Both the position numbers and the translations under genes were made by a program. A model generated the notes under the pieces. That model saw nothing but the letters and a program-made list of their open reading frames with translations, was not told where the DNA came from and made no database searches. This document shows positions 1,495 to 7,005 of a DNA stretch of 31,654 bases, one piece after another. Position 1 is the stretch's first letter; every line of letters starts with the position of its first letter. The DNA lies in UHGV virus genome UHGV-0150949; one strand, given 5' to 3'. This DNA comes from a virus.

Positions 1495-1839
1495 ATGTCA
1501 GATTTGGCTATGAAGGTTTTGAAATGGCAATCAACTGGCGATGTCGGCATCAGTAGCGCAACTCTTGCCTCAATCGCATGTGGACTGAAAAAGAATATCT
1601 ATGGTCATCACTTCGGCGCTCCACATGACGCAGCCGATTTCCAACGATGCGTTGCGCTTGTTGAGCAGATTCCAGAAATCAGAGATTCATTCGACAAGGT
1701 TGCAAAGCGCGTTCCGGCATTCAAAGGCATCCTCAACGAATGGGATTCCCTCGTTGCTCTGTTGAAGTCTGAAATGAAGATACACGGAAACAAAGCACCA
1801 GAGACTTACAGAAGAATCAGCGAGCTACGCAAGGACTAA
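1495..1839 (+). CDS. hypothetical early-left protein (114 aa)
   Basis: Track ORF 1468..1839. Preferred start is the ATG at residue 10 (1495), which has a GGAG 9 nt upstream and lies after the terminator hairpin. Confidence 0.6.
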   Translation: MSDLAMKVLKWQSTGDVGISSATLASIACGLKKNIYGHHFGAPHDAADFQRCVALVEQIPEIRDSFDKVAKRVPAFKGILNEWDSLVALLKSEMKIHGNKAPETYRRISELRKD

Positions 1840-1878
1840 CGCCTCACACTCGATGAGGCCTGTACATATCTGATAGAG

Positions 1879-1902
1879 CCGCTATATGGCGGTTTCTTTT
1901 TG
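1879..1902 (+). terminator. intrinsic terminator (ccgc-tatatg-gcgg plus TTTCTTTTT)
   Basis: Hairpin and T-run about 40 nt after the 1839 stop. Same stem family as the 1461 hairpin. Confidence 0.5.
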
Positions 1903-1916
1903 CCTGGAGAATTAAG

Positions 1917-2108
1917 ATGACCGATACCAGCCTGATTCCTGAGAAAGAAGTGATGAACAAGCTCGGTGTTTCATCACGTCAGACAATCTGGAACTATACC
2001 AAACGACACGGATTTCCGAAGCCAGTCAGAACCCACCCCAAATCATACCTTCGTGAAGCTGTTGAAGGGTGGATTCTTAACGGTGGCGTTAATCAGAAAT
2101 GCTCCTGA
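1917..2108 (+). CDS. AlpA-family DNA-binding protein / excisionase-like (63 aa)
   Basis: ATG with GGAG 9 nt upstream. Sequence LIPEKEVMNKLGVSSRQTIWNYTKRHGFPKP matches the AlpA/Xis winged-helix pattern (established family). Its 3' end overlaps the integrase 3' end convergently. Confidence 0.75.
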   Translation: MTDTSLIPEKEVMNKLGVSSRQTIWNYTKRHGFPKPVRTHPKSYLREAVEGWILNGGVNQKCS

Positions 2109-3267
2109 TGTGCCAGAACAATTTATCAGCGTGAAGCTCATACGCTTTGCGCTGAGCCTCTATCCAGTCGTGTTTATTGTATACTGACATTATCCCGCCA
2201 AGTTCATGACCGAGCATTCGCTCAGTAACATGAGGCTCGACATTCATCTCGGACAGACGTGTAACAAGCGTTCTTCTGAAATCATGTGTTCGCCAGTAAC
2301 CCAGATCCATCCCTCCCCTTATTCTATTTACGAATCGGTTGGCTGCAGCGATGCTGATCGGTTTGTTTATGTCTTCTCCAGGGAAAAGAACATCATTGTA
2401 CGTTGTCATGGCTTTTTCGAGAAAAGGCTTAATTTGTTCGAAGATTGGACGGCGGATAACATTACCCATCTTGCTATGCTCTTTCGGTACGGTCCATACG
2501 TTGTCCAGCAGGTCAAATTCTGTCTTTGTTGCCAGCCTAAGCTCTGAGAGCCTCGCCCCCCACAGCATAAGCATCTGATGAAGGAGCTTATTTGACGTAG
2601 ACGCACGGCTTCTTTCAATAGCAAGCCAAATCTTAGCCAGTTCGTGATACGACAGTACCCGATCCCCTACCTCAGCGCGGGAGCCGAAGTCCCTTGGTTG
2701 GATGCTCATAATTGCGCAACTATCTATCAACTGACGCCGCATGCACCAACTTATTGCTGATCTTAGTTGACTTAGCACCTGCCTTGCTCGGCGTGGATTA
2801 TCTCTTTCTTCTTCGGTAAGCAGGTCAACCCATTGCTTAACCGTGATAGAAGATGCCGGACGATTAGGAAAGGCGTCATGCATGCGCTTCATAACCGTTG
2901 ATCGGTAAAGTGCCTGGGTCTTTTCTCTGAGAGTTGTAGAGACGTAGTTGTCGAACCAGTAGTCGAGACACTGGGCGACCGTCATGGAGTTCTCCACCTT
3001 CTCTTCAAAATAGGTGCGTGGATCCGTTCCTGAGAAATAGAGCTTTCGCAAGTCAGCAGTGATCTGTCTGGCATCCTTCAAAGACAGGGATGGGTATCGA
3101 CCAAGCCCAAGTCGATTAGGCTTGCCATGCCAGCGATAGCGGTACTGGAACTGGATGACCCCCTTCGGTGAAATTCGTACGCTGAGGCCATCGGCATCAG
3201 CCACTTCTTGTGGGCCCGAATATGGTTTACCATAAATAGTACGCAGTTTTGTGTCGCTTATAGCCAT
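2089..3267 (-). CDS. int: tyrosine integrase, P4-type with N-terminal arm-binding (DUF4102-like) domain
   Basis: 392-aa ORF. N-terminus GLSVRISPKGVIQFQYRYRWHGKPNRLGLGRYPSLSLKDAR and C-terminal RTHDFRRT / HELGG catalytic-region motifs are typical of phage integrases. Confidence 0.93.
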   Translation of the reverse strand: MAISDTKLRTIYGKPYSGPQEVADADGLSVRISPKGVIQFQYRYRWHGKPNRLGLGRYPSLSLKDARQITADLRKLYFSGTDPRTYFEEKVENSMTVAQCLDYWFDNYVSTTLREKTQALYRSTVMKRMHDAFPNRPASSITVKQWVDLLTEEERDNPRRARQVLSQLRSAISWCMRRQLIDSCAIMSIQPRDFGSRAEVGDRVLSYHELAKIWLAIERSRASTSNKLLHQMLMLWGARLSELRLATKTEFDLLDNVWTVPKEHSKMGNVIRRPIFEQIKPFLEKAMTTYNDVLFPGEDINKPISIAAANRFVNRIRGGMDLGYWRTHDFRRTLVTRLSEMNVEPHVTERMLGHELGGIMSVYNKHDWIEAQRKAYELHADKLFWHIRSISD

Positions 3268-3575
3268 AAATAATATTTGGTACGCTCAGAAATAATAGTT
3301 TGGTACACATCTGGTACACAATATCACATGGACAACAGCGCACAGTAAACAACTATATTTGACGTTCGTAGACATACTCAGGTGAAAAAATGGTTGTTTT
3401 TCGAGTTATAACAGACAGTTAATTAACTACAGTGGACAATGCTAGACAATGACAGACACAGATAAACAACCTACCTTCCTCTTTCACGATTACACGCACC
3501 CAGCCTGAGAACAGCCATGAGTAAGGGTTTCATGGTTTATGATTTTAATTTGGTACACAATTTGGTACGCATCGC
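3268..3575. other. putative attP region with integrase arm-type repeats
   Basis: Five direct copies of TTGGTAC(A/G)C at about 3276-3285, 3299-3309, 3311-3320, 3549-3560 and 3561-3570, flanking an AT-rich roughly 230-bp core directly upstream of int. No tRNA-like core recognised. Confidence 0.5.
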
Positions 3576-4106
3576 AATTTTCACATTACTTGGCAGTCAT
3601 AAAACTCAACATAACGCGCTTCGTTGATGATGTACGTGATCACCAAAAATATCGCATCCGGACTAGTTCCATCTTCATGTGTAGGTATCTGTTCATGCCT
3701 ACCTGTATGCAAACCAGTAATAAGCCATTACAGGGTGATAGTGATGCATCAACTACGATAAATGCAGAGACATGCTGCAGTGGTGGGCGGACTGGATTGA
3801 TGAAAAGGTGGGGTAATGCCACCCATCACACCACCACGCCATCCTGCAGCGCGCTGTTGATGAAGTACGTAACACGCCACATCACCTCCACCTCTTCCGC
3901 CGCCTCCACTTCGATCGCTTCACCATCATCCGTGATTAATGCCCTTCCCATCACTCTGGCAAATTGCGTTCTGCCGCCGGACAAAATCAGCAGAACATGA
4001 TTCTGAACCAGCCTGGTGCACGGCTGGGACGGAAGTCGCTGTCGTTCTCAAAATCGGTGGAGCTGCATGACAAAGTCATCGGGCATTATCTGAATATAAA
4101 ACACTA

Positions 4107-4313
4107 TCAGTAAGTTGGAGTCATTACCGACAATGCGCAGGAATCACGAAACTCGTTCAGATCAGGCTTATTACCATCGACTTTAACGGCAGTATTTGGC
4201 TTAAAATAAAAACCAGCGCCCCACCCGTTACCGCGCACCTCAATAATGGCAATGCTGTTAATTCCTTTAACCTCTCCACCGTCAAATTTGAAAGCACCGC
4301 TTTCTGTTTTCAT
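4107..4313 (-). CDS. small hypothetical protein (68 aa) downstream of tailspike
   Basis: Track ORF 4107..4352. Start placed at residue 14 ATG with GGAGA about 10 nt upstream. No family recognised. Confidence 0.45.
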
Positions 4314-4314
4314 T

Positions 4315-4500
4315 TTAATCATTCTCCGTAACAGGTTCATTGTGAGCAGCATTTAGTACTCGCTGGAGTGGCTGGTCATTTTCGCGATCTAATTCAGCCT
4401 GTAATGCATTCATTGAAGAATTAAAAGCAGGAACTTCATGACCGCTAAGATTTACGCGAAGCATAAACTGCATGATATTTTGAATAGTTTGCTTATCCAT
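4315..4500 (-). CDS. small hypothetical protein (61 aa) immediately downstream of tailspike
   Basis: Track ORF with AGGA 8 nt upstream of the ATG. Starts 12 nt after the tailspike stop. Confidence 0.5.
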   Translation of the reverse strand: MDKQTIQNIMQFMLRVNLSGHEVPAFNSSMNALQAELDRENDQPLQRVLNAAHNEPVTEND

Positions 4501-4512
4501 TTTATTGTCCTG

Positions 4513-5949
4513 TTAAGTTAAACCAATTAATCCATGCCCGGTTGAAGCATGTAAGTCCTGAATTAATGCTGCAACTACCTTTGCTAAATCTTCGTGAGTT
4601 ATTGTTCCAGAGTTAAATGCTGCTCGGGATACGGTGCCGGTTGGCGATCCCCATCCCGTCCTCCTCTCTGAAATAACTTGATTGCCATTAAGTCGTATTC
4701 TTAAGTTGTTGAAGTTAGCCCAGTTCTCAGCCCTGTTGAAACTCAAATGTGTTGTATTTGCCGGGCCCGTTCCTACCGTAATTCGTTGATTGTCGCCCAT
4801 CAAAATTGCGCAGTTGTTTGAAAATCTAGCTTCAGAAAATGAAATTCCACTCCTAAAATAATTTGTTCTAAATCTAATGCCGTTTGCAGCTCCAGATGAT
4901 AGAGATCCCTCAAGTCTGATGTATTCGCCATTACCTACCTCGGTTAGTTCCTCTGTTGGAGTGGAAATAGAATTACCTCTAAACAACATTCCTGTCCAGA
5001 TATAACCATTTGGAGCTTCACTCCCTCTTCCGATGGTAATCATCTGTGTTACTGGATTGCTTTTATCCTGAGTTACACATACCAACCCTCTTACAGATCC
5101 TTGCAGTGCATTCTCCATCCATCCTTTATCGGGACCTCGATTATTCAGATTAAATTCATGTGCAATAGTGCTAATCGCTCCATTCTGCACTGCATCTCCT
5201 AATACTGCACCATATGACCACCCCCCCCATGTTTCGGCTTGCGGATTTCTTGATTCTCCACGCATGTGGTGACCAATTGAATGCCCATTCCCTCCCTCAT
5301 GCTTAGCAACACTTGTAGTTGTGCATGTATATGCACTTCCTGACACCTTGCGCAAAGAGTTATAAATTACCCCCTGATCCCATCGTTTGATGCCGTCATC
5401 CCTAGTTGCAGAACTAATTTTTTCCAGCCAAATAATGGGATCTGGAATTGGTGTTTCTGGTATGGAGAATCTCTGTCGTGTAGCATTTTTATATATGATA
5501 GTTTCATTGTTATAAATATTGTCACCAGCTGCATCTGAACCAGTCCATCCTGAGCCAGCATAAAAATTCTTAAGTCCATCACCAGACTGTCCAGTCAAAA
5601 CTACTCTTAACTGATCCGGGTCATACTTCAGCACATTTGGGAATTTGAACTGCTGTGCACCATACGCATCATAAACAGCCATAGAATGGCCTTGCTCAGT
5701 TACGAATTTGGCAATCTGTCCGTTATATACAGGGTAACCAGCGGCGTTAATGATGATTGGTTGCGAAACGGGAACATGAGAGCCGTCTTCGTTCTCTACA
5801 TAAACCTGAATCTGGTTTTCAGGATTTACTGGGTCAGTGTCAATTTTACCGATATAAATCTTTCCATTAGCTACGGCTTTAAAAGAACGAGCCATAGTGA
5901 AGAGTTGCGAAGGCATGCTGACTACAACATTGGCTGTAATGTCTGTCAT
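4513..5949 (-). CDS. tailspike protein: P22/Sf6-type N-terminal head-binding domain, divergent shorter C-terminal domain
   Basis: The first roughly 115 aa ([46 protein letters not shown]...VLKYDPDQ) match the P22 gp9 / Sf6 tailspike particle-binding domain as I recall it. The remaining roughly 360 aa are unrelated to the P22 beta-helix as far as I can tell. Confidence 0.9.
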
Positions 5950-6017
5950 TTAATTTGCTCCAGATACAAGGAATCGCCGCAGCATTGCCACAGTGATGCA
6001 TTATTAATCAAACAAAG

Positions 6018-6032
6018 AGACCACTGTGGTCT
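6018..6032. promoter_or_regulatory. candidate Mnt operator (perfect 7-1-7 palindrome AGACCACTGTGGTCT)
   Basis: Palindrome lies in the divergent intergenic region between tailspike and mnt. Resembles the symmetric Mnt operator type of P22 immI. A weaker related palindrome is about 30 bp upstream. Confidence 0.45.
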
Positions 6033-6095
6033 TATTGAGGATGCAACCAGCAGATAATAAGATGCCGATCCACTCACAAAAGCGAGGCATCAAGA

Positions 6096-6347
6096 ATGGG
6101 AAGAGATGACCCGCAATTTAATCTGCGGCTACCTTACGAATTAAAGGAAAAACTAAAACAGCGAGCCAAATCCAATGGCCGCTCTCTTAATTCAGAATTA
6201 GTTCAGATAGTTACTGATGCTGTATCAAAGCCATCCAAAATTTCAGGCTATCGAGACGATGCGGAACGCATCGCTGATGAGCAGTCCGAACTTGTTAAGA
6301 AGATGGTGTTTGATACGCTGAAGGATTTGTACAAAAAACCCACCTGA
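6096..6347 (+). CDS. mnt: Mnt repressor (ribbon-helix-helix, Arc/MetJ superfamily)
   Basis: 83 aa, very close to P22 Mnt as recalled (RDDPQFNLRLPYELKEKLKQRAKSNGRSLNSELVQIV...DEQSELVKKMVFDTLKDLYKK). GAGG RBS 9 nt upstream. Confidence 0.9.
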   Translation: MGRDDPQFNLRLPYELKEKLKQRAKSNGRSLNSELVQIVTDAVSKPSKISGYRDDAERIADEQSELVKKMVFDTLKDLYKKPT

Positions 6348-6446
6348 CGGTGGGTTAATTTTTGCATTTACCTGGGCCATATTGACTACTTATAAAATGA
6401 GATCAATATTTAATCGCCCAATAACGGGTGTATGTTGAGGTATATC

Positions 6447-6626
6447 ATGGCGAAAAAACCAGGTGAAAACACAGGAAAAAACGGCGGAATATACCAAGAA
6501 GTTGGCCCGCGCGGCGGTAAGAAAGACAATTTTGCCACCGTCAAGGACAACGAAAGGCTTCCACCAACAACAAAGCCAGGTCATGGCTGGGTATTAGATA
6601 AGCGAACTCCAGACAGCAAAAAGTAA
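6447..6626 (+). CDS. small basic Gly/Lys-rich protein (59 aa), unknown function
   Basis: Internal ATG (residue 6) of track ORF 6432..6626 with GAGG 6 nt upstream. Followed directly by a terminator hairpin. Confidence 0.55.
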   Translation: MAKKPGENTGKNGGIYQEVGPRGGKKDNFATVKDNERLPPTTKPGHGWVLDKRTPDSKK

Positions 6627-6630
6627 TAAT

Positions 6631-6656
6631 CAAGCCGGATCACTCCGGCTTTTTGA
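6631..6656. terminator. bidirectional intrinsic terminator (agccgga-tcac-tccggct)
   Basis: 7-bp stem with T-runs on both sides, between the convergent genes 6447..6626 (+) and 6640..7005 (-). Confidence 0.6.
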
Positions 6657-7005
6657 TATGTCGCTCGCAGAACTCAACAAGCCTGCTCATTAAGTAGCAG
6701 TAAGTCTCGTTGGCTCTTCCTGGTTCAACATCAACACCGACCCTTGAGCAGATATCGAATGCCATGTGAGCGCACTCATGGGCAATAGTAGATAGTTTGC
6801 CATTGAACACGCCTATCACATGCAAAACACCATTCTCGCTACTCATTGTATGAGACGCTCCGTTGGCGTCCGAGTCATGCACGTCAACGCCAAGTTTTTG
6901 ATGCAGGCGTTGCCATTCTGGAAAGTCTCTACAAAACACAATTGTACCGCTCTCAAAGAGCGGTACTAGCATCTTTGGTACGTTTCCAATGTTAACTTTT
7001 TTCAT
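6640..7005 (-). CDS. small HExxH-motif protein (121 aa), putative zinc metallopeptidase-like
   Basis: Track ORF. Contains HECAHM. AGGA 4 nt upstream of the ATG. No confident family assignment. Confidence 0.6.
   Translation of the reverse strand: MKKVNIGNVPKMLVPLFESGTIVFCRDFPEWQRLHQKLGVDVHDSDANGASHTMSSENGVLHVIGVFNGKLSTIAHECAHMAFDICSRVGVDVEPGRANETYCYLMSRLVEFCERHIKKPE

Follow-up and report, generated by a model that had tools for sequence, protein, structure and literature searches.

What occupies the tailspike-attP junction of a P22-like temperate phage when the O-antigen conversion genes that relatives carry there are absent? We addressed this question in a viral genome of 31,654 nucleotides (UHGV-0150949; the window hereafter, meaning this whole stretch). 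A sequence-only reading of it had described two small genes next to the tailspike gene, followed by about 540 bp without a convincing gene (3576-4106). It had offered a decayed gene or a non-coding RNA for the latter, and tailspike-associated, chaperone-like proteins or a minimal conversion or defence cassette for the former. Our analysis indicates that the junction is very probably a scar of recombination and insertion rather than a functional novelty.

The left boundary of the junction is a gene for a 392-aa tyrosine integrase of the phage-2851/Sf101/HK544 type (2089-3267, minus strand), which carries the Pfam domains Arm-DNA-bind_3 and Phage_integrase. On the right lies the gene for a 478-aa tailspike (4513-5949, minus strand), composed of a P22-type head-binding domain and a receptor-binding domain. 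The P22-like N-terminus is matched by Pfam Head_binding PF09008 over residues 1-113 (E=3.6e-65), and the PDB matches of the protein are the N-termini of the Sf6 and P22 tailspikes. The receptor-binding domain shares 64% identity with the receptor-binding protein (RBP) of Kagunavirus LM02P1 and 26% with gp226 of phage nieznany, and its C-terminal motif closes with HGLIGLT. Two small ORFs follow the tailspike gene in the same orientation, both with ribosome-binding sites, as the sequence-only reading had described. Gene A (61 aa, 4315-4500, minus strand) is intact, has an AGGA ribosome-binding site and is separated from the tailspike stop codon by 12 nt. The second ORF, here called B' (68 aa, 4107-4313, minus strand), has GGAG upstream, and its ATG abuts the TAA of gene A; its length is counted from the ATG that PGAP uses in a near-identical prophage. 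No convincing intact gene was found in 3576-4106.

We examined the attachment site at the other end of the junction. The attP (3275-3571, plus strand) was recognized by its arm-type repeats and crossover core. The repeats, ATTTGGTACRC, begin at 3275, 3298, 3311, 3548, and 3560 and lie on both sides of the core TTTCACGATTAC (3482-3493), which occurs only once. The published 13-bp core of phages 2851 and Sf101 is CGTAATCGTGAAA (PMC4159516), and 12 of its 13 bases are present at 3482-3493. The attP is thus of the phage-2851/Sf101 type, with sbcB as the integration site. Positions 3268-3713 share 91-93% identity with the attP regions annotated in Sf101 (93% for the attP), mEp234, HK140, and HK544, and positions 3268-3493 are 98-99% identical to the ends of 2851-type Stx prophages. 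Over the integrase gene and attP together, the identity with Sf101, mEp234, HK140, HK544, and the Stx phages is 91-99%. The match to prophage ends extends to 3493 on the int side; on the opposite side it starts at 3465, as it also does for E. coli prophage ends beside dacD. Positions 3449-3493 encode a replacement SbcB N-terminus, MTDTDKQPTFLFHDY, which is the annotated SbcB start at the lysogen junction; the opposite lysogen junction retains the displaced native 5' end of sbcB. In two lysogens (L004 and L005), the junctions break exactly at the core. The junction region therefore begins at 3482-3493, about 90 bp to the left of the start coordinate used in the sequence-only reading (3576).

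The match of 3465-3834 to E. coli chromosomes raised the possibility that the window spans the junction of an integrated prophage. This was ruled out, the chromosomal matches being prophage ends. The contiguity of int, attP, and the tailspike gene shows that the window has the phage (circular) arrangement and is not integrated.

Both small ORFs had been proposed as genes. This holds for gene A. The 68-aa ORF, by contrast, is not native: IS1 has cut the gene, whose intact counterparts have 88-94 aa. Alignment placed the right end of an IS1 at 4018-4128 on the plus strand (approximately 105-111 bp, with the inverted repeat of that side and codons for the InsB C-terminus). Positions 3990-4128 are 92% identical to IS1A, and the right inverted repeat has its end at 4128; an 87% match at 3995-4108 corresponds to the C-terminal 38 aa of InsB. 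In B', residues 1-62 are native, and residues 63-68 (VMTPTY) together with the TGA stop come from the right inverted repeat of IS1. The closest intact B homologue (P0036, 88 aa) is 95% identical; others are 94 aa long; that of phage nieznany has 90 aa, and the rest have 74-78 aa. All intact B homologues carry a conserved C-terminal helix, MFPLPAIDALYVAACVAFDA, which B' lacks. In the AF2 model of an intact B homologue (pLDDT 48), no other helix is reasonably well predicted. B' is most likely non-functional.

The insertion element is likewise incomplete. A complete IS1 would have two inverted repeats, insA and insB, and an 8-9-bp target duplication, and here the UmuD'-like fragment described below stands where the left end should be. 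Consistently, PGAP annotates a partial IS1 family transposase at this locus in L001, a 98.8%-identical prophage of E. coli EF5-18-41. In a three-way alignment, the UmuD'-like gene switches to IS1 within a 6-bp microhomology, GCACGG (4018-4023). Since the UmuD'-like match runs up to GCACGG and the IS1 match from there on, the joint is a microhomology deletion junction.

We then resolved the ORF-poor segment by mapping it piece by piece in pairwise DNA and protein comparisons. The sequence-only reading was right that it holds no intact gene; it is not anonymous DNA, however. By these alignments, it consists wholly of four identifiable remnants, of which the IS1 end is one, and represents neither a new gene nor an RNA. 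The first remnant is a UmuD/HumD-like pseudogene of the 129-aa type represented by HK140 gp28 (3581-3765, minus strand). Its 3' two-thirds remain, the first 45 codons are missing, and it is frameshifted: in tblastn, HumD-like residues 46-68 fall at 3765-3697, and residues 83-125 follow in another frame at 3721-3596. PGAP annotates the matching stretch in two E. coli prophages (L004 and L006) as a frameshifted, partial member of the HumD family. The second remnant is the end of an IntS-type (argW-site) integrase gene, namely its last 19 codons and stop (3757-3816, plus strand), with IntS residues 367-385 matching at 79-84% amino acid identity in tblastn. DNA homology to argW/intS prophages begins at 3756. 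The same intS fragment is found upstream of gtrA in L004 and L006, which are sbcB-site prophages, and upstream of oacB in Sf101.

The third remnant, also detected by tblastn, is the 3' fragment of a gene for a 105-aa UmuD'-like protein (3826-4026, minus strand), comprising residues 40-105 (66 codons) and the stop. It shares 94% amino acid identity with the intact copy in E. coli EC31. The acidic pseudo-ORF noted earlier on the minus strand is indeed present (3826-3984, 52 aa) and belongs to these residues, so that the proposal of a decayed gene proved correct. The strand bias reported for this part was also reproduced: GC skew falls to -0.32 at 3801-4000, which we attribute to the leftover minus-strand coding sequence of the UmuD'-like fragment. 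The intact 105-aa protein matches phrog_3469 ('UmuD-like', E=7.5e-44) and opens with the UmuD' motif GFPSPAGDYVEQR. It scores 25.5 bits against the NCBIfam HumD cut-off of 120, and a Pfam search of it gave no hit, Peptidase_S24 included. A 22-nt imperfect direct repeat (3616-3637 and 3849-3870) marks the paralogous parts of the two umuD'-like remnants. Both remnants descend from genes such as those for P1 HumD, HK140 gp28, and phrog_3469. Intact copies of these start with GFPSPAxDYVEQR, whereas both copies in the window are dead fragments without the N-terminus (residues 1-45 and 1-39 are gone, including this motif) and cannot be counted as UmuD'/HumD-like proteins.

To see what had been replaced, as the sequence-only reading had suggested, we compared the window with related phages. 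Three P22-like prophages (L012, L013, and L016), whose tailspikes are homologous to that of the window (74% amino acid identity), carry an intact block. Its order is tailspike (484 aa), A (61 aa), B (94 aa), a 393-aa glycosyltransferase on the opposite strand, a 79-aa gene, the 105-aa UmuD'-like gene, and a convergent intS. A stretch of 1,960 bp in L012 (5374-7333) is absent from the window, where the IS1 stub stands instead. It spans the 3' end of B, the genes for the 393-aa glycosyltransferase and the 79-aa protein, and 5' sequence of the UmuD'-like gene. The 393-aa protein matches Pfam Glyco_tranf_2_4 (35 bits against a cut-off of 27.5), and this GT2-type enzyme plausibly modifies a surface polysaccharide. 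The flanks share 77-82% DNA identity with the nearest intact relatives, so the DNA deleted from the direct ancestor may have differed in content from this block. In other relatives, a gene for an 80-aa protein, C, replaces B, and some are without the glycosyltransferase. A metagenomic contig with the same integrase (L023) is collinear with 1800-4025 at 97% identity and has an intact 104-aa UmuD'-like gene, which indicates that the humD pseudogene and the intS fragment are older than the IS1 event.

As had been stated, O-antigen conversion genes do occupy this position in relatives that share the attP: oacB in Sf101 and gtrABC in E. coli prophages beside dacD/sbcB. The window resembles the tailspike-attP conversion locus of Sf101, Sf6, and P22 (oacB, oac, gtrABC) in position and flanking genes, and shares with Sf101 the intS-derived linker upstream of the cassette. 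Unlike that locus, it holds no gtr, oac, or glycosyltransferase sequence. Homology to the gtr- and oacB-bearing relatives ends at 3814-3817, and tblastn of the whole window with GtrA, GtrB, GtrC, OacB, and the 393-aa glycosyltransferase gave no hit at the locus. Nor did tblastn detect any trace of the 79-aa protein, of C, or of the missing tail of B in the window. The region is essentially a deletion remnant, the outcome that the sequence-only reading had named as refuting its view, there as a remnant of oac or gtr; what was lost is instead the block of glycosyltransferase, 79-aa, and UmuD'-like genes.

A sequence of five steps very probably accounts for this arrangement. Originally, a 129-aa humD/umuD-like gene lay to the right of the attP core, as in HK140. 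A recombined-in block starting with the last 61 nt of intS then trimmed this gene and brought in the second, 105-aa UmuD'-like gene. Subsequently, IS1 would have inserted into the small gene B downstream of the tailspike gene, and a later deletion through the 6-bp microhomology would have fused an internal IS1 site to the UmuD'-like gene. Relative to the intact relatives, about 2 kb is missing, plus most of IS1. That IS1 inserted before the deletion took place is a reconstruction, as is the integration module that hosted these events.

The scar is not private to this phage. The block 3756-6000 is 98.8% identical to the EF5-18-41 prophage, which is integrated at argW and has an intact intS. A search of 5,426 complete E. 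coli genomes found the exact IS1/B junction in 3, each time in an intS-type prophage, and a complete IS1 at the same junction in none. The near-identical block in an intS prophage and the three carriers of the exact junction suggest that the scar was inherited and transferred between two integration modules. Scar-bearing blocks thus appear to have been exchanged between modules, and the 61-nt intS remnant and the tailspike region may have served as homology arms for cassette exchange. IS-disrupted Sf101-like prophages at sbcB have been described (PMC4159516). They share the sbcB attP/int type with the window and, like it, have an IS element in the tailspike-attP variable region, with conversion genes lost and a partial IS left. 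The window differs from them in keeping only about 110 bp of IS1, joined by microhomology to the UmuD'-like gene, and in that its scar would since have moved between 2851-type and intS-type integration modules.

Gene A is the part of the junction that remains intact, and we investigated its distribution. It has homologues in 34 close clusters, and a profile search extended the family to 246 clusters at 50% identity, almost all of 42-100 aa. Members share a conserved helical core of 40 residues and a variable polar or acidic tail. The near-invariant positions are M1, F12, R15, L18, G20, and E22, and the core motif is F-x2-R-x2-L-x-G-x-E-V-P-A-F. The AF2 model of A has three helices, with pLDDT 65 overall and about 72 over residues 1-40. 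Searches of A, B, C, and the 79-aa protein gave no meaningful Pfam, NCBIfam, PADLOC, or PDB-sequence matches. In PHROGs, A is weakly linked to phrog_18977, a family without known function.

The gene neighbourhood of A is more informative. In all 10 loci examined, A sits 8-40 nt downstream of an RBP gene. It follows P22-like tailspikes, and lambdoid side fibres downstream of GpJ; it is also present in Kagunavirus LM02P1, in Phapecoctavirus nieznany, in an Aeromonas siphovirus with a GDSL-type RBP, in the baseplate cluster of a myovirus, where Sheath_initiator/RBP genes stand on one side of it and wedge genes on the other, and in an SU10-like tail cluster. Tail modules of podo-, sipho-, and myovirus type are thereby all represented. 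B, C (80 aa, with the C-terminus ...YATIDC), or both often come next, and the set can be made up of A alone, A+B, A+C, or A+B+C. We compared 13 RBPs, a small sample, and found the C-terminal motif R-x-T-G...G-T...N-x-x-T-x-T...E-L-A...H-G-L-x-G-x-T in all 10 that lie upstream of A, although their central domains differ, and in none of the 3 without A/B/C. This association suggests that A and its partners B and C probably serve RBPs ending in this motif, whether as accessory, assembly, or chaperone factors. In the window, A would be a product of the late operon, translated next after the tailspike. The earlier idea of tailspike-associated, chaperone-like proteins is therefore retained for the 61-aa protein, on the basis of its conserved neighbourhood, and does not extend to the 68-aa ORF, which is truncated by IS1.

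Known tail fibre chaperones are arranged in the same way. The Tfa/gp38-type Caudo_TAP proteins of lambda and T4 and the Alteromonas tail-fibre chaperones (PMC7289586, PMC10579305) are also encoded immediately downstream of the RBP. Like them, A appears to travel with the RBP across the sampled unrelated architectures, in its case with one type of RBP C-terminus. At about 50 aa, it is much smaller than Caudo_TAP, and comparison of A, B, and C with Caudo_TAP and other chaperone families gave no significant Pfam, annotated PHROG, NCBIfam, or PDB match. We tentatively propose that A/B/C form an undescribed, widespread set of small proteins that act on the motif-bearing RBPs, for example as a trans-acting chaperone of folding or trimerisation or as a cap, and that move with the C-terminal module between podo-, sipho-, and myoviruses. 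We rate this broader proposal as a real possibility, somewhat short of an even chance.

The same neighbourhood could also arise if A/B/C were late genes unrelated to the RBP, with roles for instance in anti-defence or host takeover, that are co-transferred through breakpoints in the conserved RBP C-terminus and beyond A/B/C. In favour of this, A and B of the window share 68-79% amino acid identity with those of nieznany, where the RBPs share only 26%, suggesting partly independent histories. Moreover, the set is variable, and the phage studied here has neither an intact B nor C. However, A stands beside an RBP with the same motif in 10 of 10 loci, across at least 5 virion architectures and in phages of both Escherichia and Aeromonas, and the gaps between RBP and A are short (8-40 nt). 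We consider this account unlikely, while giving it some weight.

An accessory role for A in RBP assembly also has to be weighed against the suggestion of a minimal conversion or defence cassette, that is, a moron for lysogenic conversion, superinfection exclusion, or anti-phage defence that replaced gtr/oac. The two small ORFs hold the position of the conversion genes in Sf101 and in gtr-carrying prophages, and morons are common among small unannotated genes at the ends of prophages. Yet the ORFs gave no PADLOC, Pfam, or NCBIfam hits, and no signal peptide or membrane segment is visible in their sequences. Their orientation is that of the late tailspike gene, to which they are tightly coupled, and their homologues lie inside phage tail and baseplate gene clusters and in genomes of Kagunavirus and Phapecoctavirus, genera generally regarded as virulent. 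One of the two, B', is in addition truncated by IS1. We therefore regard a cassette of this kind as improbable.

Turning back to the gene-poor segment, ORFs within the remnants might still yield functional mini-proteins, namely the 52-aa UmuD'-like ORF (3826-3984) and a 153-aa ORF on the plus strand (3539-4000). The former is labelled a hypothetical protein by PGAP in L001, and the start of the latter is 69% identical to an 82-aa ORF annotated as a hypothetical protein in Sf101. Against this, the 52-aa ORF starts with TTG, has no Shine-Dalgarno sequence, and is without the GFPSPAxDYVEQR N-terminus, the only part that matches HumD models; the plus-strand ORF crosses three unrelated remnants in antisense, and relatives differ in its end. 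Such products are very improbable. Least credible of all is a structured non-coding RNA at 3576-4106, for example a regulatory sRNA expressed from the prophage: the biased strand composition, the want of an intact ORF, and one weak terminator-like hairpin on the minus strand (3779-3763) speak for it, but an Rfam scan of 3200-4700 returned nothing at E<=1, folding of both strands of 3576-4106 was no better than that of shuffles (z = -0.55 and -1.21), promoter-like sites in 3200-4700 numbered 1 against 3.9 expected by chance and fell outside the segment, in which the promoter and terminator scan found nothing above chance, and each part is a protein-gene or IS remnant of separate ancestry, a composite in which a conserved RNA is very unlikely.

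What lies at this locus, then, is an IS1 deletion scar of an ordinary kind, in a region already known as a hotspot; near-identical RefSeq prophages carry annotations for most of it, as partial or pseudo features. Annotators should accordingly leave the 68-aa ORF, the 52-aa ORF, and the plus-strand ORF out of their gene lists. For the biology of these phages, the scar records the turnover of the P22-like tailspike-attP moron hotspot: about 550 bp hold the traces of two generations of umuD'-like genes, a piece of an integrase gene, and an IS1 stub. The integrase piece may be a homology linker through which gtrABC, oacB, GT2-type glycosyltransferase, and umuD'-like cassettes are swapped between phages with different integrases. 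The RBP-linked A/B/C set of small proteins is the only lead of wider value; if these proteins are needed for RBP maturation, they would be relevant to tailspike transplants in host-range engineering.

Receptor-binding proteins (RBPs) whose central domains differ, a GDSL esterase being among these domains, have in common a conserved module of about 60-110 residues at the C-terminus (RxTG..GT..NxxTxT..ELA..HGLxGxT). The module is covered by neither Pfam nor PDB sequences. In the window it spans 4513-4760, corresponding to residues ~400-478 of the tailspike, and it recurs in RBPs of the comparison loci L007, L010, L011, L017, L022, L025, L027, and L029. For the 98.8% identical prophage of E. coli EF5-18-41 (L001), PGAP gives only a partial "head-binding domain" pseudogene (5840-6194). 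Despite this annotation, the DNA of the window's full 478-aa tailspike ORF aligns with L001.

The small genes following the RBPs, designated A, B, and C, vary among relatives. In phage nieznany (L007), the 90-aa gp224 (4884-5156) resembles B over residues 1-71 joined to the C-terminal residues of C (...PYAATSIDC), which suggests that a deletion fused the 2 genes. Close relatives encode, on the opposite strand, a Glyco_tranf_2_4 glycosyltransferase of 375-393 aa with a C-terminal extension. Its gene, at 5617-6798 in the P22-like prophage L012 and 4447-5574 in L022, is flanked on one side by the small genes linked to the tailspike and on the other by the UmuD'-like pair, and is a candidate uncharacterised surface-modification moron. 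The pair itself consists of the UmuD'-like gene and the gene for a 79-aa protein (phrog_3893), always arranged head-to-tail at prophage ends (L008 5027-5583; HK140, L003, 3314-3942; L017 5763-6337 and 7025-7264). A dinI homologue is found nearby: in HK140 it belongs to the neighbouring prophage DNA, and in L017 it lies in DNA that flanks the end of the prophage. Together, the 79-aa gene, the UmuD'-like gene, and the dinI homologue look like a small module modulating SOS mutagenesis.

On the plus strand of the window, a 153-aa ORF (3539-4000) passes in antisense through 3 unrelated gene remnants. Its codons 1-58 are the counterpart of Sf101 orf17, annotated as "hypothetical protein" and probably a spurious gene call.

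The 3' end of the integrase gene (2089-3267, minus strand) is overlapped by 20 nt by a convergent 63-aa AlpA/Xis-like ORF (1917-2108, plus strand); int and the gene for the putative directionality factor are thus read in converging directions, the same arrangement as in HK140 and Sf101. The phage attP contains a substitute sbcB 5' end (3449-3493), encoding MTDTDKQPTFLFHDY in place of the native MMNDGKQQSTFLFHDY. Upon integration, the gene for exonuclease I is therefore restored intact, with an N-terminus and upstream region that come from the phage.
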